The notes under the pieces are model-generated. The model saw only the letters and a list, made by a program, of their open reading frames with translations. It did no database searches and was not told the origin of the DNA. The position numbers and the translations under genes were made by a program. A stretch of 64,000 bases of DNA from an uncultured delta proteobacterium (GTDB taxonomy: Bacteria > Desulfobacterota > Binatia > Binatales > Binataceae), in assembly GCA_963717005.1 (NCBI GenBank), contig OY970324.1:849937-913936 (forward strand). The letters run 5' to 3'. Of the stretch, positions 4,590-49,335 are shown one piece after another; position 1 is the stretch's first letter; each line of letters opens with the position of its first letter.

Positions 4590-6677
4590 CTAGTCGGCCA
4601 ACTCCTTCTGAAGATCCTTGAACGTCGTAATCGGCGCCGTGCAGGTATGCTCGCGGCATACGTATGCGGTGGCATGGCCGTCGATTTGCCGCTTGTCGCG
4701 CACCTGCTCGGGGATGAACCCGGCTTGCGCGTCGGCCGCATCGGCCACAAAGATCGCGAGATTCGGAACGTAGATTAGGCCAAGCCGCTCAATCCATTCG
4801 CGCAGCTCGGGCGCATTGCGGCTGCCCACGATCACAACCTCAGTCGGCCCGCGCTGATAAAGGTCCACCGCTTCGAGCATGTGCGAGAACCCGAACGGCT
4901 GCTTCTCGATAAATTCGCGAAACAACTTCAGCGTTCGCTCCGCCTCGACGCGGTAGCGCTCGTCGCCGGTGTAGCCGTGCAGCCGCAGCAGCGCCATCGC
5001 GGCCGCGCTGTTGCCCGACGGCGTCGATCCGTCGAACGCCGCCTTCGATCGCATGATCAGCGCTTCGTGATCGTTCGAGGTGAAATAGAACCCGCCCTTT
5101 TCCTGGTCGATAAACCGCTCAAGGATCACATCGGCCAGCGTCCGCGCATGCGCCAGGTATCTCGCGTCGAGCGACGCCTCGTACAGGTCGAGCATCGCGC
5201 CCGCCAACTGCGCGTAGTCCTCGAGGTAGGCGTTGTGCCGCGCGACGCCGTCCTTGAACGAGCGGCGGAGCGCGCGCCCGTCCCAAATCGTCGTCATCAT
5301 GAAATCCGCCGCCCGCACCGCCGCTTCGAGATAGCGCCGCTCATGCAGCGCGCGATATCCCTCGGCGAATGCGCCGATCATCATCGCGTTCCACGCTACC
5401 AGGATCTTTTCATCGCGGCCCGGCTTCACCCTTTGTTCGCGCGCCGCGAAGAGCTTGCCGCGAATCTCGCGAACCTTCGCCGCCATCTCGTCTTCCGGCA
5501 ACTTGAACATCCGCGCGGCGTCCGCCAGCTCGATCGTGCGATGCGGAATATTCGCATCCTCGAAATTTCCTTCGATCGAGATGTCGAAATAGCGCTCGGC
5601 GATTGCGCCCAGCTCTGGCCCAACGACGGCATCGACCTGCTCGGGCGTCCAGACGAAGAACTTTCCTTCGACACCCTCACTGTCCGCGTCCTGCGCCGCG
5701 TAGAAACCGCCCTCGGGGCTCGTCATCTCGCGCAATACGTACTCGAAAATTTCGCGCGCGACGCCCAGGAACTCCGGCTCGTTCAGCGCGCGGCCGGCGT
5801 CGAGATAGAGCCGCGCCAACAGCGCGTTGTCGTAGAGCATTTTCTCGAAATGCGGCACCAGCCATCGCTCATCGACGCTGTAGCGATGGAATCCGCCGCC
5901 AATCTGATCGTAGATTCCGCCGCGCACCATCTTCGACAACGTGTGCCGAACCATCTCGGCCATCGACGCGTCGCCGTCGGCCGCGTGCACGCGAAGAAAC
6001 AGCGAGAACACGAACGTGTTGGGAAACTTCGGCGCCTGCCCCAGCCCGCCGTTGATACTGTCGTAGTGCGACGCCAGCGCCCGCGCCGACTCCGTCGCCA
6101 GCTCCGGCTTCAAGTCGCCGCCGGTCGGCACGTAGTTGCTAATCGCCCCGAGCGCCTCGGTCAGCTTCTCGAGATTGTTGGTGACTTCCTTCGCCTTGTC
6201 GCGATAGGCCTGCGATACCGCCGCCAGGATTCGCGGGAAGCCCGGCATCCCATTCCGATCCTCGGGCGGATAGTACGTCCCGCCAAAAAACGGCCGACCG
6301 TCCGGCGCCAGGAACATCGTCAACGGCCATCCGCCGCGCCCGGTGATCAACTGCACCGCGTCCATGTATATCTGATCGAGGTCGGGCCGCTCTTCGCGAT
6401 CCACCTTGATCGGAATGAAGTTCTCGTTGATCATCCGCGCGATCGCGTCGTTCTCGAACGACTCGCGCTCCATCACGTGGCACCAATGACAGGCCGAGTA
6501 GCCAATCGACAGCATGATCGGCTTGTTCTCCGTCCGCGCGCGCGCGAGCGCATCCGGCCCCCACGCGTACCAATCGACCGGGTTGTACGCATGCTGGCGC
6601 AGGTACGGGCTTTGTTCGTTGATTAACCGATTCGGCTTGCGGCCGACGTGACTTTCGGGATTTTTCGCCTGGCTCAT
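4590..6677 (-). CDS. thioredoxin-domain protein, YyaL/DUF255 family (N-terminal thioredoxin fold plus six-hairpin glycosidase-like domain)
   Basis: N-terminus [43 protein letters not shown] is the DUF255 signature. Start moved to the MSQAKN ATG at 6677; the 79-aa upstream extension in the ORF track is basic and low complexity. Confidence 0.75.
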
Positions 6678-6774
6678 GAATCTCGTATCATAGTATCTGC
6701 CTCCCGACGCTCTGTCATTCCGGTCGCGCCGCCGTATGGCAGAGCGATGAGCGCGCCAGTTACAATTCGCTCCT

Positions 6775-8463
6775 ATGCGATTTCGACTGCGCGCCGGATG
6801 CGTCCTGATACTCGCCGCGATTCTTTTCTTCGCACGCCTCGGTGCGCGAGCGCTGTGGTCCTCGGAATTTCGATGGGCCGAAATCGCGCGAGAGATGCTG
6901 GTGACGCACAACTACTTCTGGCCGACGATCAATGGCCACGTCTATTACGATAAACCGCTCGGCTCTTACTGGCTGGTAATTTTCTCGACCCCATTCACAG
7001 GCGGCCTCAACGAGGCTGCTACGCGATTGCCCAGCGCCGTCGCGGGACTGCTCGCAGTGCTGCTGCTCATGCTTGTCGTGCGACGCCTCTACGACGCTCG
7101 CACCGCGATGCTCGCCGGCGTCATCCTCGCGACCAGCTTCAGCTTCGTATTCTTTTCGCGCGACGCCAGCGCCAACGTCGAAACCATCACCGGCGAGCTC
7201 GCCGCACTCTTGCTCTTCAATCGCAGCGAGGATCGTGGCTGCGGAATCTGGGTCGTCGGTCTGTGGTTGATCATGGCTGCGACTTCGCTCACCAAGGGCC
7301 TGCTCGGATTCGCGCTGCCGCTATTGGTGATTGGCGCATATTCATGCCTGCGCGACGGCTGGTCGCAACTGTTTCAGGAAATTCTCCACGGCTCGGTGGC
7401 TGACCGCGCAGGAAAGTTCATCGAACGCAATCGATGGTTCTTCAACTGGTACACCGTCGCCGGCATCGCGCTCGGCGGCTTCGTGTACTACCTGCCGTTT
7501 GAAATCTCGGCGCGCACGATGGGCACGCAAAAGGGTCTCGCGATGGTCTATCGCGAAAACGTCGTCCGCTTTTTCCATCCGTTCGACCATCGCGGACCGA
7601 TCTATTTGTATGTGTACGTCATCTTCGGCCTGATGGCGCCGTGGTCGGCGCTGTTGCCCGCGGCCCTTGTCGAAACCCATAGCCTCCGCACCGCCGACGC
7701 CGAGCCCGCCCGCGCCGATCGATTCACGCTGGTCTATTTCTGGGCGACCTTTATATTTTTCACGCTCTCGGGCTCGCGCCGCAGCTATTACATCCTACCG
7801 ATTCTGCCCGCCGCCGCGATCCTGGTCGCGCGAACCCTCGCCTACCCCGGCGAGCTACGCTCGATCCTCGCCCGCCGGCTGCTGACGGCCGGCTATGCGG
7901 TCGTCGCGTTCGCCGCGGTCGCCGGCATCGTCTTGCTGATTCCGGCCTGGGCGATTCTGCCGAGCCCCTACGACGCGTTCCCGGCCTTGCCCGCCAGATT
8001 CCCCTTCATTGTAATCTGGGTCGCATCGGTCGGCGCCGTCATCTTCGCGATTCGCAAATTCAACCCATATCGCATCGCAATTTCGATGGGCGTGATCGCG
8101 TATCTGGTGATGACCTACATATATATCTTCGCGATGCCCGCGGCGGAGGCATACCGTGGCGAAAAGCCATTCGGCTACGCGGTGTTGAACAAACTCGGCG
8201 GTTCGACCGACCACCTCGTCCTGTTCAAGACGGAAGGACCGCTGTTCTATCTGAATCCGCCGCGGCCGTTGCCCGAGTTCGACGATGAGCAGGATTTGCA
8301 GGACGCCATCGCCAGCGGTGGCGCAAAATGGATGATCGTCCGCCGCCGCGACATGCCCAGGCTCGACACTCCGACCACTATCGAGCTCAGCGAAGCGTCA
8401 TATCCATGGGAGACCGACTCCAACTATCGAAACAAAGTGGTGTTGGTGAGGATTGGCAATTGA
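6775..8463 (+). CDS. glycosyltransferase family 39 (ArnT/PMT-like) polytopic membrane protein
   Basis: 562 aa, more than 10 predicted TM helices; N-terminal region resembles 4-amino-arabinose / mannosyl transferase family. Confidence 0.55.
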
Positions 8464-8506: not shown

Positions 8507-8629
8507 AACCTGAGAGCAAAATGGTGGCCTCGCCATTTTGCGATTAGTACTGGGTGCAGGGGTCACCCCAGGGGTCACCCCTGCCGCGGAAGCGCGAAAC
8601 CCGCGAAGGGTTTCACATTTGAATAAGTG
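8507..8629 (+). repeat. composite interspersed repeat, modules D-A-B-C (B half duplicated)
   Basis: aacctgagagcaaaatgg..cgccattttgcgatt hairpin (A), gggtgcaggggtcacccctgcc palindrome (B), cgaaacccgcgaagggtttcac hairpin (C), preceded 8470-8505 by ttcgctgcgctctgaatgaca module D. Homologous copies at 29687, 39586, 42486, 44369, 49266. Confidence 0.7.
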
Positions 8630-8646: not shown

Positions 8647-9789
8647 CTACAGACGCATCGGCATGACGACGTACGTGTACTGCGCATCCGACTCCGTCCG
8701 AATCACGCCGGGGCTCACGTCGTCGCTGAGTCCAAGCTCGACCGTCGAGTCCGCGCCTTGCGGAATCACCCCGAGCACCTGCTGCACGTACGACGCGTTG
8801 AATCCGATCGCGAATTCTTCGCTCTTGAAATCCACGTCGAGCGATTCGCTTGCTTCTCCAGTTTCCGGGCTGGTCGATGAAACCGTCAGCGTTCCGGCCG
8901 ACAGCGCGAATTTCACGCCGTGGTATCGTTCGCTCGAGAAAATCGCCGCGCGCTTGATTGCCGCGAACAGCAGATCGCGCTTGACCGTTATCTTGTACTT
9001 CGATTGCTTCGGGATGACGCCGCGGTAGTCGGGAAATTCGCCCTCGACCAGCCGCATCGAGACTTCCGTCGCCCCACGCTTCAGGTAGGCGAGCTGGCCT
9101 TCGAGACTGAGCCGCACTTCGGACTCACCGCCGACATCCAGAATCTTGCGCAGCTCCGCGAGCCCCTTTCGCGGAATGATCGCGCCGCTCGTCATCGTGA
9201 ATCCCGGCACTTCGCGCTCGATCATCGCGAGCCGATGCCCGTCGGTCGCGACCATCCGCACCGCTCCGGGAGCGTTCGACTCGACAAACACGCCGCTCAG
9301 GTTGTAACGAGCTTCATCGGGACTGACTGCGAATATGGTTTTGTCGATCATCCTGGCCAGCACGTCCGCAGGAATCGCCAGTTCGGCCTTGAGTTGCTTC
9401 TTCGCGGCGCCCGCGTCCTTGCCCGTGCTCTGACTCGGCATTGCGGGAAAACTGCGCGGATCGAGTCCCATCATTTTGAATTTCGCGCGGCCGCATTTCA
9501 GCTCGACCCAATCGCCATCGAGCGTCGTCAGCGCGACTTCGTCGCCCTCGGTCTCGCGCACTATTTCAAACAGCTTGCGCGCGTTGAGGGTCAGACTTTT
9601 TTCTTTGCCGGAACACGCCACCTGAGTGCGGATTCCGACTTCGAGGTCAGTGGCGCTGAGCGTCAGCGCGTTTCCGTTTGGTTCGATTAGAACATGGCCG
9701 AGGATCGGAACCGTAGTGCGCCGTTCCACGATGCCCTGCACCAGTCCCAAACCGCTCAGCAGCGATGCGCGCTCGATTGCGAGTCCCAT
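8647..9789 (-). CDS. dnaN: DNA polymerase III beta sliding clamp
   Basis: 380 aa; N-terminus and overall three-domain length typical; immediately downstream of dnaA. Confidence 0.9.
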   Translation of the reverse strand: MGLAIERASLLSGLGLVQGIVERRTTVPILGHVLIEPNGNALTLSATDLEVGIRTQVACSGKEKSLTLNARKLFEIVRETEGDEVALTTLDGDWVELKCGRAKFKMMGLDPRSFPAMPSQSTGKDAGAAKKQLKAELAIPADVLARMIDKTIFAVSPDEARYNLSGVFVESNAPGAVRMVATDGHRLAMIEREVPGFTMTSGAIIPRKGLAELRKILDVGGESEVRLSLEGQLAYLKRGATEVSMRLVEGEFPDYRGVIPKQSKYKITVKRDLLFAAIKRAAIFSSERYHGVKFALSAGTLTVSSTSPETGEASESLDVDFKSEEFAIGFNASYVQQVLGVIPQGADSTVELGLSDDVSPGVIRTESDAQYTYVVMPMRL

Positions 9790-10030
9790 GAATTGTTAGC
9801 CCGTCTTCCTATTCCGGATCTTTAGATCTCTAAAAAAGAATAGCAGTAATAGTAGGAGTTGTGGATTTGTGGATTGATCTTGCAAACGCCCGAAAACCAA
9901 GGCTGATCGACCGCTGAAAAGTTGTCGGTGGAAACGCGGCTACTCGACAGGGCCGGCCGTGCTCGCACCGGCCCTGTCGATAGCTCCAACCTTATGCGCA
10001 CCTCGTCCACAGCCTCCTCCACATCGATTC
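9790..10030. other. AT-rich dnaA-dnaN intergenic region with tandem DnaA-box-like TGTGGATTT TGTGGATTG and a 13-bp-stem hairpin (9944-9980); possible second oriC module
   Basis: ctaaaaaagaatagcagtaatagtaggagttgtggatttgtggattgatc is strongly AT-rich against a GC-rich background. Box-like 9-mers 7-8/9 match to TGTGGATAA. Confidence 0.4.
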
Positions 10031-29686: not shown

Positions 29687-29819
29687 AACCTGAGAGCAAA
29701 ATGGCGTCCTCGCCATTTCGCGATTTCTTTTCAATGGGTGCAGGGGTCACTCCCCCCGCGACGGTGTCGATGCCGAAGGAAGCGTGAAACCCACCGCGGG
29801 TTTCACATTCAATTAACTG
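29687..29819 (+). repeat. composite interspersed repeat A-B-C
   Basis: aacctgagagcaaaatggcgtcctcgccatttcgcg, gggtgcaggggtcac, gtgaaacccaccgcgggtttcac. Confidence 0.7.
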
Positions 29820-33298: not shown

Positions 33299-34459
33299 CT
33301 ACTTCCGCGTCTCCAATCCCATCCGCCGCGCGATGATCACCTTCATGATCTCATTCGTCCCCGCATAGATCGATTGCACCGCCGCATCCGCATAGTCCGT
33401 CGACACCGGGTACTCCATCATAAAGCCGTAGCCGCCGTGTAGTTGTAAGCACTGGCTCGTGATCTTCTTCTGTAAGTCCGTGGTCCACCACTTCGCCATG
33501 CTCACTTCGGCGACTATCTCGTCGCCGCGCACATGCGCCGCCAGCAGCTTATCGACAAAGGCCTGTCCTACTTCCACTTCGGTCATCATCTCGGCCAGCT
33601 TGAACTGGGTGTTCTGAAATTCCGCTATCGGCTGCCCGAAGGCCTTCCGATTTTTGCAGTAGGCGATCGTGTCCTCGAGCGTGCGCCGGCAGCTCGCCAT
33701 CGATCCGACTCCGATGCACAGCCGCTCCTGCTGAAGCTTCTCCATCAACATCTTGAAGCCCGTCCCTTCCTTGCCGAGCAGGTTGCCGGCCGGGACCCGG
33801 CAGTCCTCGAAAAACAACTCGCTGGTGTCCTGCCCGCGCAGCCCCAGCTTGTCGAGCTTGCGCCCGCGCACGAAGCCGGGCGCGCTCGCATCAACCAACA
33901 TTAAACTGACCCCCTTATGCGGCGGATTGGCCTTGGGATCGGTCTTGCACGCGACGATTACGAGATCGGCAATCTGCCCGTTGGAAATAAAAATCTTCGA
34001 TCCGTTGATCACATAATGGTCGCCGTCGCGGCGCGCCGTCGTCTGCACCGCGGCCAGATCCGATCCGGTCCCCGGCTCGGTCATCGCGATCGCCAGTATC
34101 GTCTCGCCGGCGATCGCGCCCGGCAGGTAGCGCCGCTTCTGCTCCTCGCTGCCGAAGCTCGCGATATACGGCATGCAGATATCCGAATGCAGCGACATCA
34201 TCAGACCGTGCGCCCGCACCCGCGACAGCTCTTCCATCACGATCGCGTCGTAAATGAAATCGACGCCGCCGCCGCCGTATTCGGCCGGCGCGTTGGCGCC
34301 CAGGAATCCCGCTGCGCCCATCTTGCGCCAGCTCGCCCGATCGCTCATCCCCGCGCGATTCCATTCGGCCACCTTCGGCTCGATCTCACTATCGACAAAC
34401 CGCCGCACCTGCGCCCGAAACATCTCGTGCTCTTCAGTAAAAATCTCTCGTCTCATCAT
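33299..34459 (-). CDS. acyl-CoA dehydrogenase
   Basis: 386 aa; typical ACAD N-terminus and C-terminal YEGTNEI-like motif (YAGTNEIM). Confidence 0.85.
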   Translation of the reverse strand: MMRREIFTEEHEMFRAQVRRFVDSEIEPKVAEWNRAGMSDRASWRKMGAAGFLGANAPAEYGGGGVDFIYDAIVMEELSRVRAHGLMMSLHSDICMPYIASFGSEEQKRRYLPGAIAGETILAIAMTEPGTGSDLAAVQTTARRDGDHYVINGSKIFISNGQIADLVIVACKTDPKANPPHKGVSLMLVDASAPGFVRGRKLDKLGLRGQDTSELFFEDCRVPAGNLLGKEGTGFKMLMEKLQQERLCIGVGSMASCRRTLEDTIAYCKNRKAFGQPIAEFQNTQFKLAEMMTEVEVGQAFVDKLLAAHVRGDEIVAEVSMAKWWTTDLQKKITSQCLQLHGGYGFMMEYPVSTDYADAAVQSIYAGTNEIMKVIIARRMGLETRK

Positions 34460-34507
34460 TCACGCATCTTCGTTTTGCCGCGCAATCCGATCAAGCCCGG
34501 CAAAAGA

Positions 34508-34967
34508 GTAATCGCCTGCGCGGCGCGCGGCAGGGGTGACCCCTGCACCCAGTATGAAAGTGAAAAGCGCAAAGTTGCGCGCGGCGCGCTACTTTGCGCT
34601 CAGGGGCGGCGGTGGCTCGATTGAAATTCGTGACGTTTGAGCTTGCTTTTGTCCGTTCCCCCTTTCCGTTCCGGAAAGGGGGACAAAGGGGGATAGGACG
34701 GCGGGATTGCTTATGTCTCTTCCCCTTCCCGCGCGGGAAGGGGGTAGGGGTTAGGTTCTTCGCATCGACCACAGTGGACGCCATTTATCGATAGCCTCGC
34801 GCGGGCAGGCGAGCCAGACTCATGGCTTATATGACCGAGAGCAAAGTAGTGCGCTGCGCACAACTTTGCGCTTGATCCCGGGTGCAGGGGTCACCCCTGC
34901 CCAAGGAGGCGCGGAACCCACGGTGGGTTCCGCATTAAATAAAGTGATCTCCCCTTCCCGCTCTACC
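34508..34967 (+). repeat. 460-bp MITE-like element with about 60-bp terminal inverted repeats, copy 1
   Basis: Ends ggcaggggtgacccctgcaccc..gcgcaaagttgcgcg..gcgctactttgc in inverted orientation; near-identical to 35611-37337. Confidence 0.75.
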
Positions 34968-34987
34968 CGCGCAATTTCACGAGCGTC

Positions 34988-35275
34988 TCACGCGGCCTTG
35001 AACGACCGCACCCGGATTCGCTTCACGCGGCTGCGCGCATGCCAGAGATCGTAAGCCATCTGCATCCCAAGCCACGTCTCCGGGCTCGAACCGAACGCCT
35101 TCGATAGCCGAATCGCCATCTCGACCGACACGCTCGCTCTCTCATTCACCACATCCGAGAGCGCCTGTCGCGTGACGCCCAAAGCCTTCGCGGCTTCCGT
35201 GACCGAAAGATTCAAAGGCTCAAGGCATTGCCGTCGTACGATTCCACCCGGATGCGGAGGATTGTGCATAGCCAT
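34988..35275 (-). CDS. higA: HigA-family antitoxin (XRE HTH)
   Basis: MAMHNPPHPGGIVRRQCLEPLNLSVTEAAKALGV is the classic HigA N-terminus. Confidence 0.8.
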   Translation of the reverse strand: MAMHNPPHPGGIVRRQCLEPLNLSVTEAAKALGVTRQALSDVVNERASVSVEMAIRLSKAFGSSPETWLGMQMAYDLWHARSRVKRIRVRSFKAA

Positions 35276-35288
35276 AATTTTTCTCTAC

Positions 35289-35567
35289 CTAATGATAATC
35301 GACGTAGTCCACATCGACCGCGTCTCCGTCTTCAAAGCGGAAAGTCACGCGCCAATTCCCCGATACTGAAACGGCATGGTGTCCCTTCAAGACTCCCTTC
35401 AATGCGTGCAACCGAAAGCCGGGCAGGTCCAGATCTCGTGCCGTTCGGCTTCGGTCAAGGGCCGCGAAAATATCGCGGAGCTTGTCGATATGCTGAGGCG
35501 CCACGCGCCCAACCGTTCGTCCATCGTACAGAGCCTTCAGCCCGCGATGTCTAAACGACCTGATCAC
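35289..35567 (-). CDS. higB: HigB-family RelE/ParE-fold toxin
   Basis: MIRSFRHRGLKALY ... GNWRVTFRFEDGDAVDVDYVDYH is the classic HigB pattern; toxin-first order. Confidence 0.8.
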   Translation of the reverse strand: MIRSFRHRGLKALYDGRTVGRVAPQHIDKLRDIFAALDRSRTARDLDLPGFRLHALKGVLKGHHAVSVSGNWRVTFRFEDGDAVDVDYVDYH

Positions 35568-35862
35568 TCGTTCAGGTTGTAGCCTGTCACTTGTCGCTTG
35601 TCAAATTCATAGTCGCCTGCGCGGCGGGCGGCAGGAGTGTGAACCCTGCACCCAGTATGAAAGTGAAAAGCGCAAAGTTGCGCGCGCGACGCGCTACTTT
35701 GCGCTCAGGGGCGGCGGTGGCTCGATTGAAATTCGTGACGTTTGAGCTTGCTTTTGTCTGGTTCCCCCTTTCCGTTCCGGAAAGGGGGACAAAGGGGGAT
35801 AGGACGGCGGGATCGCTTATGTCTCTTCTGCTGGAGTTGCCCCGAATGCGTGGACACTCGGG

Positions 35863-36775
35863 TTAGGCGGCCACAGATATAACATGACGTTGCTCGAATT
35901 GGTTGGGGGACAGGTAGCCGAGGGCCGAATGTCTCCGCTGCCGGTTGTAGAACAGCTCGAGGTATTCGAAGAGCGCGCTGCGGGCTTCCTCACGCGTGCG
36001 CCACTGAGTCTCATAGACCAGCTCGAGTTTGAGCGTGGCAAAGAAGCTTTCCGCTACCGCGTTGTCCCAGCAGTTGCCACTGCGGCTCATGCTGCTCAGG
36101 ATTCCGTGCGCCGCCAGCAGTTGCTGATATTCCTGGCTGGCGTATTGGCTGCCGCGGTCCGAGTGATGCAGCATTCCGCCCGCCGGCCGGCGCCCCTTAA
36201 GCGCCATCCCAAGTGCGTCCAGTGCCACTCCTCGTTCCAGCCGTTCGCTGAGCGCCCATCCGACCACCCGGCGCGAGAACAAGTCCAGCACTATCGCCAG
36301 GTACAACCAGCCCTCAAAGGTCCACAGATAGGTGATGTCACTGACCCAGCCGGCATTGGGCGTGCTCATCGCGAACCGCCGCGCGAGCAGATTACCTTTT
36401 ATCGGCATTCCGTGTTTGGAGTCGGTGGTGCAGCGAAAGCGTCGGCGTACCCGCGCGCGCAGCCCCGCCGTCCGCATCAGGCGCGCCACCCGCTTGCGCG
36501 CGATCCGCTGTCCCCGGTCGCGCAACTCCGCATGCACCCGCGGACTGCCGTAGCGGCCGCGGCTCTCGGCGTGGATCGCCGCTACCTCCAGGGTCAGGCG
36601 CTGGTCCTGACGCCGCCGCTCGGCCGCTGGCCGTTTGCACCAGGCGTAGTAACCCGAGCGCGAGACGTGCAGCACCCGGCACATCAATGCCACCGGGTAC
36701 CAGGCCTTCTCCGTCGCGATAAAAGAGAATCTCACTGGTTCTCCCTGGCGAAGAAGGCCGTCGCTTTTTTTAGGA
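35863..36775 (-). CDS. IS3-family transposase OrfB (integrase core), expressed by -1 frameshift from orfA
   Basis: YPVALMCRVLHVSRSGYYAW and DDE region HSDRGSQYAS; frameshift heptamer inferred. Confidence 0.75.
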
Positions 36776-37079
36776 TTTCGCGCTCCATCCGCAAGTGCTG
36801 GTTCTCGCGCCTGAGCTCGACCAGTTCTTCGCGCTCGCTGCGCTTGAGTGAACCGGCGGGCCCCCGGCCGGCCTCTACTTCGGCCTGCTCCACCCAGCGC
36901 CGCAAGGCGGTCTCCCCGATCCCCAGCTCCAGCGCCAGCTGCCCGATGCTTTTGCCGCTGCTCTGGATCAACCGCACCGTCTCGGCCTTGTACTGCTCCG
37001 AGAACTTCCTCCGCTTCCGTCCATTCTCCATCGTCCACTCCTCCGCGCTCACTTTCGCGCTTTTCGGAGTGTCCATCAA
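36732..37079 (-). CDS. IS3-family transposase OrfA
   Basis: HTH LIQSSGKSIGQLALELGIGETALRRWV and leucine-zipper-like C-terminus. Confidence 0.8.
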   Translation of the reverse strand: MMDTPKSAKVSAEEWTMENGRKRRKFSEQYKAETVRLIQSSGKSIGQLALELGIGETALRRWVEQAEVEAGRGPAGSLKRSEREELVELRRENQHLRMEREILKKATAFFARENQ

Positions 37080-37340
37080 ACCGGGGCAAGTCCATGCTTT
37101 CGCTTCCCGCGCAGGAAGGGGGTAGGGGTTAGGTTCTTCGCATCGATCACAGTGGACGCCATTTATCGATAGCCTCGCGCGGGCAGGCGAGCCAGACTTA
37201 TGACTTATATGACCGAGAGCGAACTAGTGCGCTGCGCACAACTTTGCGCTTGATCCCGGGTGCAGGGGTCACCCCTGCCCAAGGAGGCGCGGAACCCACG
37301 GTGGGTTCCGCATTAAATAAAGTGATCTCCCCTTCCCACG

Positions 37341-38270
37341 CTATGCGCGCATCGACGCCCGCGCGTTTCCCAGCAGCATCTCCGCGACCGCCGTCAGATC
37401 GTTATCGTCGTAGTAATCGATTTCGATCCTGCCTGGATTGCGTCCGCGCCGCTTGAAAATTCTGACCTTGCGCTTGAGCGCGCGCTGCAGGCCCTCGGCC
37501 AGCGCGTTCAGATTCGCATCGGCCGTTGATCTGGCCGATGCGCTTTTGCTGCGCGGACGATTCGCCGTCGCCATTTCTTCGGCCCCGCGCGAGGAGATTC
37601 CGACCGCCGCGATTCGCCGCGCCGCCGACAGTTGCGCGTCGGCCGATTGTATCGAGAGCAGCGGCCGCGCCTGTCCCGCGGTCAACTCTCCTTTCGCGAT
37701 CATATTCAAAATCGGCTGCGGCAGCTCGAGCAATCGAAGCGTGTTGCCGACGTACGGCCGGCTCTTGCCCACCCGCGACGCGATCTCGTCATGCGTCAGC
37801 CCGAAATGATCGACCAGCCGGAAAAACGCCAGGCCTTCTTCGACCGCGTTCAAATCCTCGCGCACGATATTCTCGACCAGCGACATCTCGAGCGCCGCGC
37901 GATCGTCAAGCTCGCGCACCACCACCGGCACTGTCTCGAGCCCCGCCGCCCGCGCCGCCCGCAGCCGCCGCTCGCCCGCGATCAGCTCGTAGCGCGGGCC
38001 GTCAGTTTCCGCGCCGGTGGCGACAGGCGCATCGATTCGCCGCACGATCAGCGGCTCGATAATCCCCTGGCTCTGGATCGCGCGCGTCAGTTCGGCCAGC
38101 CGCTCCTTGTCGAAATTTATCCGCGGCTGAAACGCCCCCGGCCTGATACTCCCGACCGGCGCCATCCTGAATTGCGACTCGCCGTCATCAGCAGTAGCGC
38201 CGCTTTCAATCCCCGCCGCCGCATTCCCAATCAGCGCATCAAGCCCGCGCCCCAATGGTTTCCGCATCAT
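37341..38270 (-). CDS. parB: chromosome partitioning protein ParB
   Basis: GERRLRAARAAGLETVPVVVREL ParB box and C-terminal dimerisation region. Confidence 0.85.
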   Translation of the reverse strand: MMRKPLGRGLDALIGNAAAGIESGATADDGESQFRMAPVGSIRPGAFQPRINFDKERLAELTRAIQSQGIIEPLIVRRIDAPVATGAETDGPRYELIAGERRLRAARAAGLETVPVVVRELDDRAALEMSLVENIVREDLNAVEEGLAFFRLVDHFGLTHDEIASRVGKSRPYVGNTLRLLELPQPILNMIAKGELTAGQARPLLSIQSADAQLSAARRIAAVGISSRGAEEMATANRPRSKSASARSTADANLNALAEGLQRALKRKVRIFKRRGRNPGRIEIDYYDDNDLTAVAEMLLGNARASMRA

Positions 38271-38592: not shown

Positions 38593-39396
38593 TCAGTGCG
38601 GTGCGGAGGTCACCTGTCCCCGCGCGATTATCTCCGCGGCGAGCGCGCGATAACCCTCCGCGCCCGCCGACTTCGGCTCGTATTCGAGCACCGACAATCC
38701 ATGACTCGGGCTCTCCGACATCCGCACGCTGCGCGGAATCACGCTGCGAAAAACCTTTTCAGGGAAATGCCTTCTTACCTCATCGGAGATTTCATGGCTG
38801 AGACGATTGCGCGAATCGAACATCGTGAGCACCAGGCCCTCGAGCTCGAGCGCCGGCCTCAGCGCCGTCTTGACCTTGTTGATCGTGCCGAGCAACGAGT
38901 TCAGCCCCTCGAGCGCGTAGTACTCGCATTGCATCGGCACCAGCACACTGTCCGCCGCTACCAGCGCATTCAAAGTGAGAATCCCGAGCGAGGGCGGCGT
39001 GTCTATTAGAACATAGTTATATTCCGCTCTCAGCGGCTCCAGGAGCGCTCGCAGGCGTCGCTCGCGTCCCTCCATCGTCACCAGCTCGATCTCGGCGCCG
39101 ACCAGGTCGTCGCCCGCCGGCGCCAGCGCCAACGTCGGCCGCACCTGCCGCAGGATTTCCGCCATCGCCGGCCCGCCGACCAGCGCCTGGTAGATAGTCT
39201 TGCCCTCGCGACGAGCGGCGCTCACGTCTTCCGGCGTGCTGATTCCCGAAGTGGCGTTGCCCTGCGGGTCGAGATCGACCAGCAGCACGCGACAGCTAGC
39301 CTCGGCCAGCGCGACCGCGAGATTGATAGCCGTCGTAGTCTTACCGACGCCGCCTTTCTGATTTGCGATTGCGATTACCCGCCCCACGACAACCAC
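38593..39396 (-). CDS. parA: chromosome partitioning ATPase ParA/Soj
   Basis: KGGVGKTTTAINLA deviant Walker A. Confidence 0.85.
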   Translation of the reverse strand: MVVVGRVIAIANQKGGVGKTTTAINLAVALAEASCRVLLVDLDPQGNATSGISTPEDVSAARREGKTIYQALVGGPAMAEILRQVRPTLALAPAGDDLVGAEIELVTMEGRERRLRALLEPLRAEYNYVLIDTPPSLGILTLNALVAADSVLVPMQCEYYALEGLNSLLGTINKVKTALRPALELEGLVLTMFDSRNRLSHEISDEVRRHFPEKVFRSVIPRSVRMSESPSHGLSVLEYEPKSAGAEGYRALAAEIIARGQVTSAPH

Positions 39397-39422
39397 CTCA
39401 ACCCGAGCGCGCCGACTAGCGT

Positions 39423-39436
39423 TTCACCTGAAACAT
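39423..39436. promoter_or_regulatory. degenerate parS (GTTTCACcTGAAAC, 13/14)
   Basis: One mismatch to canonical core. Confidence 0.5.
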
Positions 39437-39536
39437 CGGGGCCCGACAATCATTAAATCCCCGCGATCGCAAAAGGTCAAATCGCACGATCACATTCGCA
39501 CAAGCACTTGAATTATCAAGCTTTTCTAGCAGGAAC

Positions 39537-39550
39537 GTTTCACGTGAAAC
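39537..39550. promoter_or_regulatory. parS site GTTTCACGTGAAAC
   Basis: Perfect 14-bp core within cGTTTCACGTGAAACg. Confidence 0.8.
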
Positions 39551-39585
39551 GTCAATATGAGCAGCGTAAGGTAGGTCAGGAACGG

Positions 39586-39690
39586 AACCTGAGAGCAAAA
39601 TGGCGTCCTCGCCATTTTGCGATTAGTACTGGGTGCAGGGGTCACCCCTGCCCAAGGAGGTGTGGAACCCAGGAGGGGTTCCACATTCAG
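39586..39690 (+). repeat. composite interspersed repeat A-B-C
   Basis: aacctgagagcaaaatggcgtcctcgccattttgcgattagtactgggtgcaggggtcacccctgcccaaggaggtgtggaacccaggaggggttccacatt. Confidence 0.7.
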
Positions 39691-40445
39691 CGGCGAATCC
39701 AGACCGCGATCGCGCGATGCATCAGCTGCTTGCCGTGGCGCAAATCGTAGCCCGAGATTGTCCCCTCGACCAGGCCCGCGGATGCCGCTTTGGCGTGAGC
39801 CACGTCGTCGAACTTCTGGTCGGCGCTGACGTAGAGCATCAGCACGCCCTCGCGATGCAACCCGCGGCCCGCGATCTCGAAAAGAGCGCCCGGATTCGCA
39901 ACCGCGCGCGAAGTTACGAGGTCGAAGCTGTCCGGTGCATCGAGCGATTCGGCCCGCGCGCATTCCACGCGAACGTTTTGCAGGCCCATCTCGATTGCCG
40001 CCTCGGTCAGGTAGGTCGCGCGCTTGCGGCGCGCCTCGACCAGCGTCACATTAACGTTGAGCGCCGCCGCTATCACCAGTCCGGGAAAGCCGGCGCCGCT
40101 GCCGATATCGAGCATCCGATGGGTCCGGCCGAGACGAAGGATCTTCGAGCTGGCCGCGATTGATATCGGGATAATACTGTCGAAGACGTGGAACACTATC
40201 TCGTCGGGGTCGCGCGGATGCGCCGTGAGATTGATCTTCGGCCCCCACACGGCGAGCGTCGCCGCCATCCGCTCGATCCGGCCAAGGAACTCGTGCGTGT
40301 TGGCGACCACTCCCAGCGGCGCGATTGCGGGCGCGAGCTGTGCGCGCACCTCGGCGGCGATCTGCTCCGGCGTCAGAACCTTCTTCCTGGGTGCCGCCTT
40401 GGCCGTTCGTTTCTTCGGTGGCTTGGGCTTGCTCTTAGGTTTCAC
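39687..40445 (-). CDS. rsmG: 16S rRNA (guanine527-N7)-methyltransferase RsmG/GidB
   Basis: GSGAGFPGLVIAA SAM motif. Lys-rich N-terminal extension and GTG start lying inside a parS site make the true start uncertain. Confidence 0.75.
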   Translation of the reverse strand: MKPKSKPKPPKKRTAKAAPRKKVLTPEQIAAEVRAQLAPAIAPLGVVANTHEFLGRIERMAATLAVWGPKINLTAHPRDPDEIVFHVFDSIIPISIAASSKILRLGRTHRMLDIGSGAGFPGLVIAAALNVNVTLVEARRKRATYLTEAAIEMGLQNVRVECARAESLDAPDSFDLVTSRAVANPGALFEIAGRGLHREGVLMLYVSADQKFDDVAHAKAASAGLVEGTISGYDLRHGKQLMHRAIAVWIRR

Positions 40446-40452
40446 GTGAAAC
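40439..40452. promoter_or_regulatory. parS site GTTTCACGTGAAAC
   Basis: Perfect core. Confidence 0.8.
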
Positions 40453-40503
40453 GTCGGCAGTGAAAAGTTAAGTAGCTGATATTATTAAAGAATCGTGCAA
40501 AAA

Positions 40504-40517
40504 CGTTTCACGTGAAA
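40504..40517. promoter_or_regulatory. parS site GTTTCACGTGAAAC
   Basis: Perfect core. Confidence 0.8.
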
Positions 40518-40519
40518 CG

Positions 40520-42397: not shown

Positions 42398-42485
42398 GGC
42401 GAAGCAGCGATTATGGCCCGCGCGAGCGCCTCGCGCAAAGCGGGGAGCGTGCGCCTGAAAGTAAGAAATAAATACAATAAGATTT

Positions 42486-42676
42486 ATATGTGAAACCCGC
42501 CTGGGTTTCACGCTTCCTTGGGCATCGACACCGTCGCGGGGGTTGACCCCTGCACCCGGTGAAAAAGAAATCGCAAAATGGCGAGGACGCCATTTTGCTC
42601 TCCGGTTCTTTTTCCTGTGTCCTTCTTCCTGTGTCACTCCGTCGTTGTGTCATTCAGAGCGGAGCGAAGAATCCCG
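42486..42676 (-). repeat. composite interspersed repeat C-B-A-D (inverted orientation)
   Basis: atgtgaaacccgcctgggtttcac .. ggttgacccctgcaccc .. gcaaaatggcgaggacgccattttgc .. tgtgtcattcagagcggagcgaagaatcccgg. Confidence 0.7.
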
Positions 42677-44348: not shown

Positions 44349-44368
44349 AAAAGGGGAAGAACGTATTG

Positions 44369-44494
44369 TATGTGAAACCCGCGGTGGGTTTCACGCTTCC
44401 TTGGGCAGGGGTGACCCCTGCACCCAGTGAAAAAGTGAAAAGAAATCGCAAAATGGCGAGGACGCCATTTTGCTCTCAGGTTCTTTTTCCGGAG
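44369..44494 (-). repeat. composite interspersed repeat C-B-A-(partial D)
   Basis: Near-identical to 42486-42676. Confidence 0.7.
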
Positions 44495-49238: not shown

Positions 49239-49265
49239 AGAGGGGAGCGTAGGAACTTGATTGTG

Positions 49266-49322
49266 AGCGGAACCCGCCGTGGGTTCCGCACCCTCCCTGG
49301 GCAGGGGTGACCCCTGCACCCG
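49266..49322 (-). repeat. partial composite repeat (modules C-B)
   Basis: ggaacccgccgtgggttccgc .. gggcaggggtgacccctgcaccc. Confidence 0.6.
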
Positions 49323-49335
49323 GTATTAAGATAAG

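Follow-up and report, generated by a model that had tools for sequence, protein, structure and literature searches.

Two copies of a probable resident intergenic spacer around a higBA operon beside parB in Candidatus Binatus

Genes and features of the higBA locus

A higBA toxin-antitoxin locus sits between an acyl-CoA dehydrogenase (ACAD) gene and parB in the chromosome of Candidatus Binatus, the closest named taxon among 5724 ParB homologues. The window referred to below is the whole stretch of DNA that was analysed (64,000 nt). Domain matches for both bordering genes bear out the location given in a first-pass annotation, and ACAD also adjoins parB in the closest relatives (locus comparison). 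The position near the origin agrees with a sign switch of the GC skew at ~40-42 kb; no DnaA box (≤1 mismatch) that would mark oriC was found in 40-46 kb. By comparison of sequences, the parB-ACAD spacer is highly variable, and it lies near the replication origin. The features are listed below by position in the window.

33299-34459, minus strand: ACAD gene, with Pfam domains Acyl-CoA_dh_N, _M and _1; one border of the spacer
34460-34508, minus strand: remnant of the 3' end of a GFA-family gene (gene lost), directly upstream of ACAD
34509-34973, no strand: copy 1 of the repeat block, on the side of higA and ACAD (alignment of both copies, nhmmer module matches and parB-tail comparison)
34529-34601: copy 1, E module, inverted and truncated
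34657-34683: copy 1, D hairpin
34722-34743: copy 1, C hairpin
34837-34940: copy 1, A module
34941-34962: copy 1, parB 3' flank
34963-34973: copy 1, parB remnant (last codons and stop)
34988-35275, minus strand: higA, antitoxin of the HTH-Xre type, 95 aa (TIGR02607, E=7.9e-35; PF01381 HTH_3)
35289-35567, minus strand: higB, toxin, 92 aa, GTG start (PF05015 HigB-like_toxin, E=1.6e-17)
35568-35604, minus strand: higBA upstream element (TTGACAAGCGACAAGTGACAGGCTACA...), putative promoter/operator
35610-35831, no strand: left part of repeat block copy 2, up to and including the IS3 target TGC (35829-35831)
35637-35706: copy 2, E module
35763-35789: copy 2, D hairpin
35832-37094, minus strand: IS3-family element, 1263 bp (NF033516; HTH_Tnp_1 and rve domains)
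35832-35859 and 37067-37094: IS3 inverted repeats, 28 nt, imperfect
35863 to ~36770: IS3 orfB, DDE (rve)
36732-37079: IS3 orfA, HTH_Tnp_1 domain
37095-37351, no strand: repeat block copy 2, right part, beginning with the TGC duplicate (37095-37097)
~37103-37121: copy 2, C hairpin
37215-37319: copy 2, A module
37341-38270, minus strand: parB (PF02195 and PF17762); the other border of the variable spacer
38593-39396, minus strand: parA
39687-40445, minus strand: gidB

Two related loci (L007 and L089) keep an intact GFA gene, to whose 3' end the GFA remnant aligned, and two others (L168 and L085) have the same remnant, with which it likewise aligned; the gene family was assigned by a profile match to PF04828.

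The higBA pair called by the first-pass annotation on the minus strand was confirmed by scores above cutoff for both proteins: HigA matched the equivalog model TIGR02607 (antidote_HigA; 118.6 bits, cutoff 47.7) and HigB matched PF05015 over the full length of the profile (64.1 bits, cutoff 27), while an NCBIfam search with HigB gave no match. higB precedes higA with a gap of 13 nt, and this toxin-first order is kept in all homologous loci. The element upstream of higB is conserved and lies at a constant distance at every homologous higBA locus, irrespective of the flanking DNA, and is presumably the promoter/operator; a consensus promoter scan did not call a higBA promoter. Both genes are under purifying selection by sequence comparison with relatives (dN/dS of 0.03-0.13 for higA and 0.07-0.23 for higB, 0.03-0.23 over the pair). 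Synonymous divergence (dS) of higBA is on par with that of ACAD, its identity matrix is congruent with the parB and ACAD matrices, and its tree agrees with the trees of both neighbours. Since higBA has co-diverged with its neighbours, it is not a recent arrival. Some relatives have lost the whole pair and others the toxin only. These comparisons show an old, vertically inherited and selectively maintained type II toxin-antitoxin operon.

The two repeat blocks are direct repeats that bracket higA and higB, as had been noted, with boundaries corrected to 34509-34973 and 35610-37351 and an identity of 95-97%. The left part of copy 2 matched 34509-34721 at 206 of 213 positions (96.7%) and the right part matched 34722-34973 at 240 of 252 (95.2%), with 19 mismatched positions and several indels overall and longest perfect runs of 69 nt (left part) and 113 nt (right part); the likeness of the copies is far beyond chance. 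The unit had been described as a 460-bp element with 60-bp terminal inverted repeats. Inverted repeats do exist (34529-34601 against 34837-34901; 73 nt, 79% identity), but they are subterminal, and the block continues beyond them by 20 nt at one end and by 72 nt at the opposite end. The final 11 nt of parB, stop included (37341-37351), lie within copy 2. The terminus of copy 1, TGCGCGGGTAGAGCGGGAAGGGG, matches the parB end of relatives, ATGCGCGCGTAGAGCGGGGAAGGGG, including the stop codon, which places the duplication boundary inside parB.

The full central part of the block was found at this locus only in 1.3 Mb of DNA (window and 173 loci); the sub-parts C and C-D are dispersed, with 7 copies in L012 alone. 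A 22-mer from the block interior had no match among the genome contigs searched. An Rfam search (E≤1, 32.5-42.5 kb) gave nothing relevant, and a known RNA was rejected on that basis; a ParB-binding array was rejected because no parS-like site lies inside the block. Terminator-like matches were not commoner than in shuffled sequence.

The IS3-family element splits copy 2 at 7 nt from its C hairpin. The insertion and its TGC duplication stand as first described, with the length amended from 1262 to 1263 bp. Its transposase matched the NF033516 IS3 model with 376.5 bits (cutoff 160), and orfB, which carries the DDE (rve) domain, is reached from orfA through an A7G slippery (-1 frameshift) site at 36764-36771. 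The ends are TG...CA (TGGA...TCCA) with TGC on either side, within the 3-4 bp target-site duplication (TSD) by which the family is recognised along with the frameshifted DDE transposase and the TG...CA ends. The element occurs as a single copy in all DNA examined and is not present in copy 1 or in any relative; its intact ORFs, its perfect TSD and this distribution together indicate a recent insertion, in agreement with the earlier claim of recent mobile activity.

Repeat modules and the same site in relatives

The A and E parts, which supply the supposed terminal inverted repeats, belong to a dispersed, REP-like module of ~100 nt with three hairpins; A is the forward copy in the block and E an inverted, truncated one. 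A second dispersed family, a G-rich hairpin pair (C and D), lies in the block interior. Matches to the A/E module by nhmmer numbered 10 in the 64-kb window and 154 in Binatus loci. Like REP, BIME and REPIN sequences, these are short intergenic palindromes in many copies, found solo, as inverted pairs and in mosaics; the interiors of A...E pairs range from ~80 to 330 nt. Compensatory changes were seen in 8 of the 27 stem pairs of the module, and its orientation tracks the direction of replication, not the gene strand. Most modules lie at orthologous positions across species. They follow the core genes gidB, parA and parB at conserved positions, on which ground an attC/integron-cassette reading was rejected. 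The block is thus best described, from its sequence composition, as a BIME-like mosaic built from two families of palindromic repeats, both structured and dispersed. Where higB homologues from metagenomes stood in other contexts (L086-L164), no modules lay around them, from which it follows that the modules do not travel with the higBA operon. Literature searches on Binatus repeats or on the higBA-parB locus found nothing.

In relatives whose ParB is ~90% identical, the block occurs once, at the same place, and higBA is absent. The arrangement in L001/L002 and L008 is parB-[A-B'-C-D-E]-ACAD, with a single block that shares ~85% identity with the window block along almost all of its length; sites empty of higBA that keep one block are therefore found in L001 and L008. 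Because a single block occupies the orthologous site in genomes without higBA, the block is taken to be the resident spacer, and the supposed 460-bp MITE would be the local intergenic spacer itself, in two copies around higBA. Copy 1 has its ortholog in the single block of L001, L008 and L168, the last of which has the full block on the ACAD side only, with A+B' repeated. Three further loci (L004, L167 and L007) have A'-E only, a repeat of roughly 85-110 nt. L085 carries higBA at the same site without such repeats and with a GFA-end duplication only, and L089 carries higBA there with the repeats absent. L007 has an A'...E block between the stop of higA and the remnant of GFA, and L085 has none at the same point; the window and L168 carry the block within 3 nt of this point. 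The L085/L007 difference looks like an insertion/excision polymorphism, so that the inverted pair may at one time have been mobile as a whole.

Alleles of the segment upstream of ACAD depart from the species tree, with L167 differing from L168. The A and A' hairpin variants are shared inside a genome and differ between genomes, which indicates concerted evolution. The full block on both sides of higBA was seen in this lineage only, and since the two copies are 95-97% identical as against ~85% between species, the duplication is lineage-specific and fairly recent.

Formation of the two block copies

The two blocks probably stem from an event specific to this lineage, either a segmental duplication or gene conversion between repeat modules, after which IS3 inserted. 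The graded states among relatives (L089, then L085, then L004/L167/L007, then L168) count for this explanation. In the ancestor, one A module would have followed parB and another higA, and both higB and ACAD would have been preceded by the GFA 3' end. The two spacers, being bounded alike, may then have undergone ectopic gene conversion, in which a copy of B-C-D-E replaced the parB-side interior; that interior would have held an inverted C module and the GFA gene. The same product would also result from a tandem duplication and a subsequent A x A' deletion. IS3 inserted later into the parB-side copy. The junction of E with the higB promoter, between GGCGACTATGAAT and TTGACA, shows no clear homology, so that one or more illegitimate joins, or a small deletion afterwards, must be assumed. 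The direct repeats share perfect runs of 69 and 113 nt, and RecA-type recombination between them can delete higBA and leave one block; the single-block state of L001 and L008 is the exact product expected. Of the excisable or mobilisable cassette proposed earlier, deletability between direct repeats is thereby retained, but carriage by a MITE is not.

The A...E unit might instead be a present or former REPIN-type non-autonomous element, moved by a Y1 (RAYT-like) transposase, that entered once downstream of higA in an ancestor and gained its second copy in this genome by recombination. The presence of the block in L007 and its absence from L085 at a point within 3 nt of the insertion in the window and L168, the structured hairpins with their compensatory changes, and the replication-directed orientation expected for single-strand transposition (PMC6006769) all speak for such an entry. 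We nevertheless consider it rather unlikely, as a test of nine small window ORFs gave no match to Y1_Tnp or a RAYT-like protein, the mostly orthologous module positions make movement rare at best, and interiors of ~80 to 330 nt suit separate modules in a mosaic better than a single element. This reading is compatible with the preferred duplication or gene conversion for the last step.

A Campbell-type integration, in which a circle with higBA and one block recombined with the resident block of an "empty" chromosome, seems distinctly improbable. It would yield the block-higBA-block geometry as a single-crossover product, empty alleles exist in relatives, and the ACAD-upstream alleles that depart from the species tree imply homologous exchange in the region. 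However, higBA is as diverged from relatives as the flanking core genes, so that the donor would be of the same lineage, and an earlier illegitimate circularisation joining E to the higB promoter would be required; the present data cannot separate the circle route from intrachromosomal routes.

That two independent 460-bp MITE insertions bracket higBA as a composite mobilisable cassette, as the first-pass annotation had it, is very unlikely. Two direct copies with 73-nt inverted repeats inside, an IS that marks the locus as active, and the L085/L007 polymorphism, which hints that A...E blocks come and go, can be cited in its favour. Against it, homology continues past the inverted repeats to the parB coding end, so that the copies are not delimited by terminal inverted repeats, and there is no TSD, no direct repeat being common to the flanks of the copies. 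All relatives have an ortholog of the parB-side A module, which leaves at most B-C-D-E as new there, and a single-copy block occupies the same site in genomes without higBA. No further full copy was found in 1.3 Mb. Nor does higBA behave as MITE-borne cargo: its divergence parallels that of its neighbours, and it lies in place without such elements in L089 and L085, and beside only the ~85-110-nt repeat in L004, L167 and L007.

A 1.1-kb periodic repeat produced by mis-assembly is scarcely credible: beyond repeats being classic places for mis-joins nothing specific favours it, the copies differ at 19 positions and by several indels, one of them holds an IS with a clean TSD, each has unique and distinct flanks, related arrangements (L168, L004 and L007) recur in independent assemblies, and a 100% ParB match lies on a 4.58-Mb contig.

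Comparison with known systems

The locus is a case of ordinary genome plasticity, and its analysis corrects a tempting misreading, in which direct repeats and inverted repeats around a toxin-antitoxin pair mimic a MITE-borne cassette. It also provides a comparative series for the persistence and decay of a chromosomal toxin-antitoxin system (the full operon, an antitoxin without its toxin, and a clean loss between repeats) and illustrates, for an uncultured phylum, the part of palindromic repeats in driving small rearrangements. More speculatively, and with a low chance of being right, the modules may be a new type of REP-like, single-strand-transposed and replication-polarised repeat that acts as portable patches of homology and makes the parB-proximal spacer a hotspot of cassette exchange. 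If so, higBA, the GFA gene, a dioxygenase operon and IS elements would come and go at this spacer, and the duplicated block would be one snapshot of general repeat-driven gene turnover beside the origin.

Known HigBA type II systems include the Rts1 higBA of Proteus vulgaris and the chromosomal higBA pairs of Vibrio cholerae. In HigBA systems the toxin stops growth through ribosome-dependent cleavage of mRNA and the antitoxin neutralises it; for the Binatus pair this activity is predicted, with indirect support from the purifying selection on both genes. The pair described here shares with them the toxin-first order, a HigB-like toxin of the RelE superfamily (92 aa), a HigA antitoxin of the HTH-Xre type (95 aa), a short gap between the genes (13 nt) and a conserved upstream element with repeated GACAAG motifs. 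It differs in its setting, a chromosome next to parB and the origin as opposed to a plasmid or integron, and in its vertical inheritance over a genus-level clade with repeated loss.

MITE-flanked composite units are exemplified by the ~439-bp MITE pair around class 1 integrons in Acinetobacter and by integron mobilization units. The Binatus arrangement resembles them in having two direct copies of a few hundred bp, with inverted repeats, around a small gene cargo. In contrast to those units, the Binatus copies are not bounded by their inverted repeats and have no target duplications, one end contains parB coding sequence, and the block is the resident spacer of relatives. The IS3-family element has no unusual feature relative to its family, with its length of 1263 bp, TG...CA ends, imperfect terminal inverted repeats, A7G frameshift and 3-bp target duplication.

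In E. coli and Pseudomonas, REP sequences form the clusters and inverted doublets known as BIMEs and REPINs (PMC6006769, PMC3116915). The Binatus modules are likewise short, intergenic, GC-rich palindromes that occur alone, as inverted pairs and in mosaics, serve as substrates of recombination and keep their stems through compensatory change. Unlike BIMEs and REPINs, they have no RAYT gene identified with them (nine small window ORFs tested) and belong to an uncultured host phylum, Binatota; their unit has three hairpins and ~100 nt, as against ~20-40 nt for REP, and their orientation is polarised relative to replication.

Layout of the higBA locus

Two direct repeats bracket higBA between the acyl-CoA dehydrogenase gene (ACAD) and parB, as the first-pass annotation had described, and its figure of 460 bp is close to the true block, which extends a little further on the parB side. 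With gaps excluded, identity between the copies is 96.7% across the left 213 nt and 95.2% across the right 252 nt, and the longest perfect runs common to both are 69 nt and 113 nt. Blocks are written A-B-C-D-E, where A is a ~100-nt three-hairpin module, E a truncated and inverted copy of it, and C and D are hairpins; A' is the A module after higA, and B' marks the B segment in relatives.

Features of the higBA locus
33299-34459: acyl-CoA dehydrogenase gene, flanking
34509-34973: repeat copy 1, direct
34988-35275, minus: higA (TIGR02607, 118.6 bits), between the copies
35289-35567, minus: higB (PF05015, 64 bits), between the copies
35610-35831 and 37095-37351: repeat copy 2, direct, interrupted by the IS3-family element
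35832-37094: IS3-family element (1263 bp; NF033516, 376 bits), splitting copy 2
37341-38270: parB, flanking, followed by parA and gidB

Two landmarks place the locus near the origin, as had been proposed: a switch in the sign of the GC skew at ~40-42 kb, and rnpA at 45.4 kb. Four parS-like palindromes (core GTTTCACGTGAAAC; 39420-39435, 39536-39551, 40438-40453 and 40504-40519) are located around gidB and on the upstream side of parA; the repeat block contains none.

The IS3-family element has TG...CA ends, imperfect inverted repeats of 28 nt, an orfA with HTH_Tnp_1 and an orfB with rve that is reached via an A7G slippery site. TGC stands on either side of it, as annotated earlier, although its length is 1263 rather than 1262 bp. 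The insertion is later than the block duplication. The G-rich hairpin CCCCTTCCCGCGCGGGAAGGGG (C; 34722-34743 and ~37103-37121) has a neighbouring IS in two species: the IS3 element of the window lies 7 nt to one side of it, and in the relative L008 an IS481-family element (6214-7237) lies ~7-13 nt away on the opposite side. This hairpin may be an insertion hotspot.

The parB-ACAD spacer in relatives

By its ParB homologues the organism belongs to Candidatus Binatus (Binatota); one homologue, on a 4.58-Mb contig, is 100% identical. The spacer was compared across loci (L handles) from close relatives, taken as contigs with ParB ~85-91% identical. GFA denotes a GFA-family gene, and its remnant upstream of ACAD (g) is a ~45-nt duplicate of the GFA 3' end that is present in L007, L085, L168 and the window (34460-34508).

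Content of the parB-ACAD spacer
L001, L002: single block A-B'-C-D-E, without higBA
L008: as L001, plus an IS481-family insertion flanking the C hairpin opposite to the side hit by IS3 in the window
L165: empty, shorter spacer
L168: A-B'-inverted C, higBA, full block A'-B'-C-D-E, GFA remnant
L004, L167: as L168, but only A'-E after higA
L007: A-inverted C, intact GFA gene, higBA, A'-E, GFA remnant
L085: GFA, higBA, GFA remnant, without modules
L089: GFA, higBA, ACAD 14 nt further, without modules
L169-L173: GFA, then orphan higA, with higB deleted
L006: GFA pseudogene alone
L010: Rieske dioxygenase operon, A, C, GFA

The first-pass reading of higBA as MITE-borne cargo does not survive this comparison, since L085 and L089 carry higBA at the same site without modules, the very finding that the first-pass annotation had named as refuting it. 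Nucleotide identity matrices of higBA, parB and ACAD gave identical groupings, with L004, L167 and L168 together, the window as their sister, and L007, L085, L169 and L089 more distant. Against the same relatives, dS was 0.29-0.76 for higB/higA and 0.36-0.61 for ACAD, and dN/dS of higB and higA was 0.03-0.23 in all pairwise comparisons; higBA was therefore at this site before the species split and is under purifying selection. Genomes without higBA lost the operon.

An upstream element of higBA, TTGACAAGCGACAAG(T/C)GACA.GCTACA, is kept in every homologue, even where the operon sits in an unrelated context, and is a putative promoter/operator; a consensus promoter scan called no promoter there. 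The orphan antitoxin lineage L169-L173 (e.g. L169:6272-7020) keeps an intact higA right after the GFA gene, with 95-96% amino acid identity to the window higA. L007 carries a second, divergent higBA-like pair (9371-9926; 35-37% amino acid identity) ~0.5 kb downstream of ACAD. Judged by its ORF translations, L010:6261-9000 carries putative genes for the alpha subunit of a Rieske-type dioxygenase, for a beta-like subunit and for an SDR, followed by an A module of its own, which marks the spacer as a general gene-turnover site. The A'...E block of ~400 nt in L007 (7213-7656), with ATCT at both sides, is missing from the corresponding position in L085 (787-860). In both, this position is bordered by the higA stop and the GFA remnant, and the difference reflects either insertion or precise loss.

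Origin of the second copy and loss of higBA

The higBA arrangement is a lineage-specific segmental duplication, not two transpositions, and its components (a HigBA pair, an IS3 element and REP-like repeats) are ordinary. Copy 1 ends beside higA in TGCGCGGGTAGAGCGGGAAGGGG, matching the ATGCGCGCGTAGAGCGGGGAAGGGG in which relatives' parB genes end, and thus includes the parB stop with the codons just before it; it also has ~25 nt of parB-specific 3' flank that dispersed modules lack. No target duplication was found around the repeat copies. All relatives have an orthologous A module after parB, so that the new part of the parB-side copy is limited to B-C-D-E. Within a genome A and A' share hairpin variants, and these differ from one genome to another, a sign of repeated gene conversion. 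Copies 1 and 2 diverge by ~4% and the window and L001 blocks by ~15%; the duplication is specific to this lineage and moderately recent.

The ancestral order was probably parB, A, inverted C, GFA, higBA, A'-B-C-D-E, g, ACAD, in which both spacers are bounded by A on one side and a GFA end on the other. The first spacer would then have been converted by the second, with B-C-D-E in place of inverted C and GFA, which would account for the second copy as well as the loss of GFA. At the present junction of E and the higB promoter (GGCGACTATGAAT/TTGACA) g is no longer visible, so the model needs an extra small deletion or an illegitimate join. Two other routes, integration of a circle and tandem duplication with a later A x A' deletion, would leave a product identical to that of conversion, and the product does not tell either apart from conversion.

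If A and A' recombined in an ancestor resembling L168, the outcome would look exactly like L001 and L008; higBA has thus probably been deleted via these repeats in nature, in line with the earlier suggestion that it is potentially excisable. In the window, recombination in the right-hand segment would delete higBA and the IS, leaving a clean single block, and in the left-hand segment would leave one block still with the IS. It is speculative that the toxin, by killing such segregants, stabilises the region near the origin.

A dispersed family of three-hairpin modules

The terminal inverted repeats ascribed to a MITE do exist (34529-34601 versus 34837-34901; 73 nt, 79%), but they are subterminal and are two copies of a dispersed ~100-nt module with three hairpins (GCAAAATGGCG...CGCCATTTTGC; GCAGGGGTCACCCCTGC; GTGAAACCC.....GGGTTTCAC). 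A, beside parB or higA, is complete; E, beside ACAD or higB, is inverted and without the third hairpin. Profile searches found six solo modules in the window beyond the block, and, across 1.3 Mb of related DNA, a total of 154 copies, all at Candidatus Binatus-level loci (in relatives, L001-L030, L047 and L165-L173).

Solo modules in the window
8512-8622, plus
29692-29813, plus
39591-39690, plus
42484-42602, minus
44365-44477, minus
49262-49330, minus

Compensatory double changes were present at 8 of 27 consensus pairs in an alignment of 53 distinct copies. Some modules have an optional ~16-nt insert, CCGCGACGGTGTCGAT, within hairpin 2 (e.g. window 29740-29775 and 42520-42550; L168:6866-6985), which suggests sub-families. 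With loci turned so that parB is on the plus strand, modules on either side of the GC-skew switch keep to one orientation: 25 of 27 loci have a '+' copy between mnmE and gidA, and from the gidA-gidB spacer onward 103 modules are '-' and 14 '+'. The rule persists where neighbouring genes sit on the opposite strand (L166; mnmE in the window), and orientation seems to track replication rather than transcription.

A second dispersed family comprises the C and D hairpins (TCCCCCTTTCCGGAACGGAAAGGGGGA and CCCCTTCCCGCGCGGGAAGGGG), in both orientations, and also occurs at L001:8821-8924 and in the parA-parB spacer of most loci (~4900-4955). The repeats themselves are a more interesting lead than the higBA arrangement. 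In the 1.3 Mb searched, the full-length block interior was found at the parB-ACAD locus only, and the C hairpin (~40-50 nt) and C-D pair (~110 nt) are dispersed over related loci, with 7 C/C-D copies within 11 kb in L012. Together with the module family, these dispersed sub-parts make the block a BIME-type mosaic of repeat modules (definitions per PMC6006769) and not a single element.
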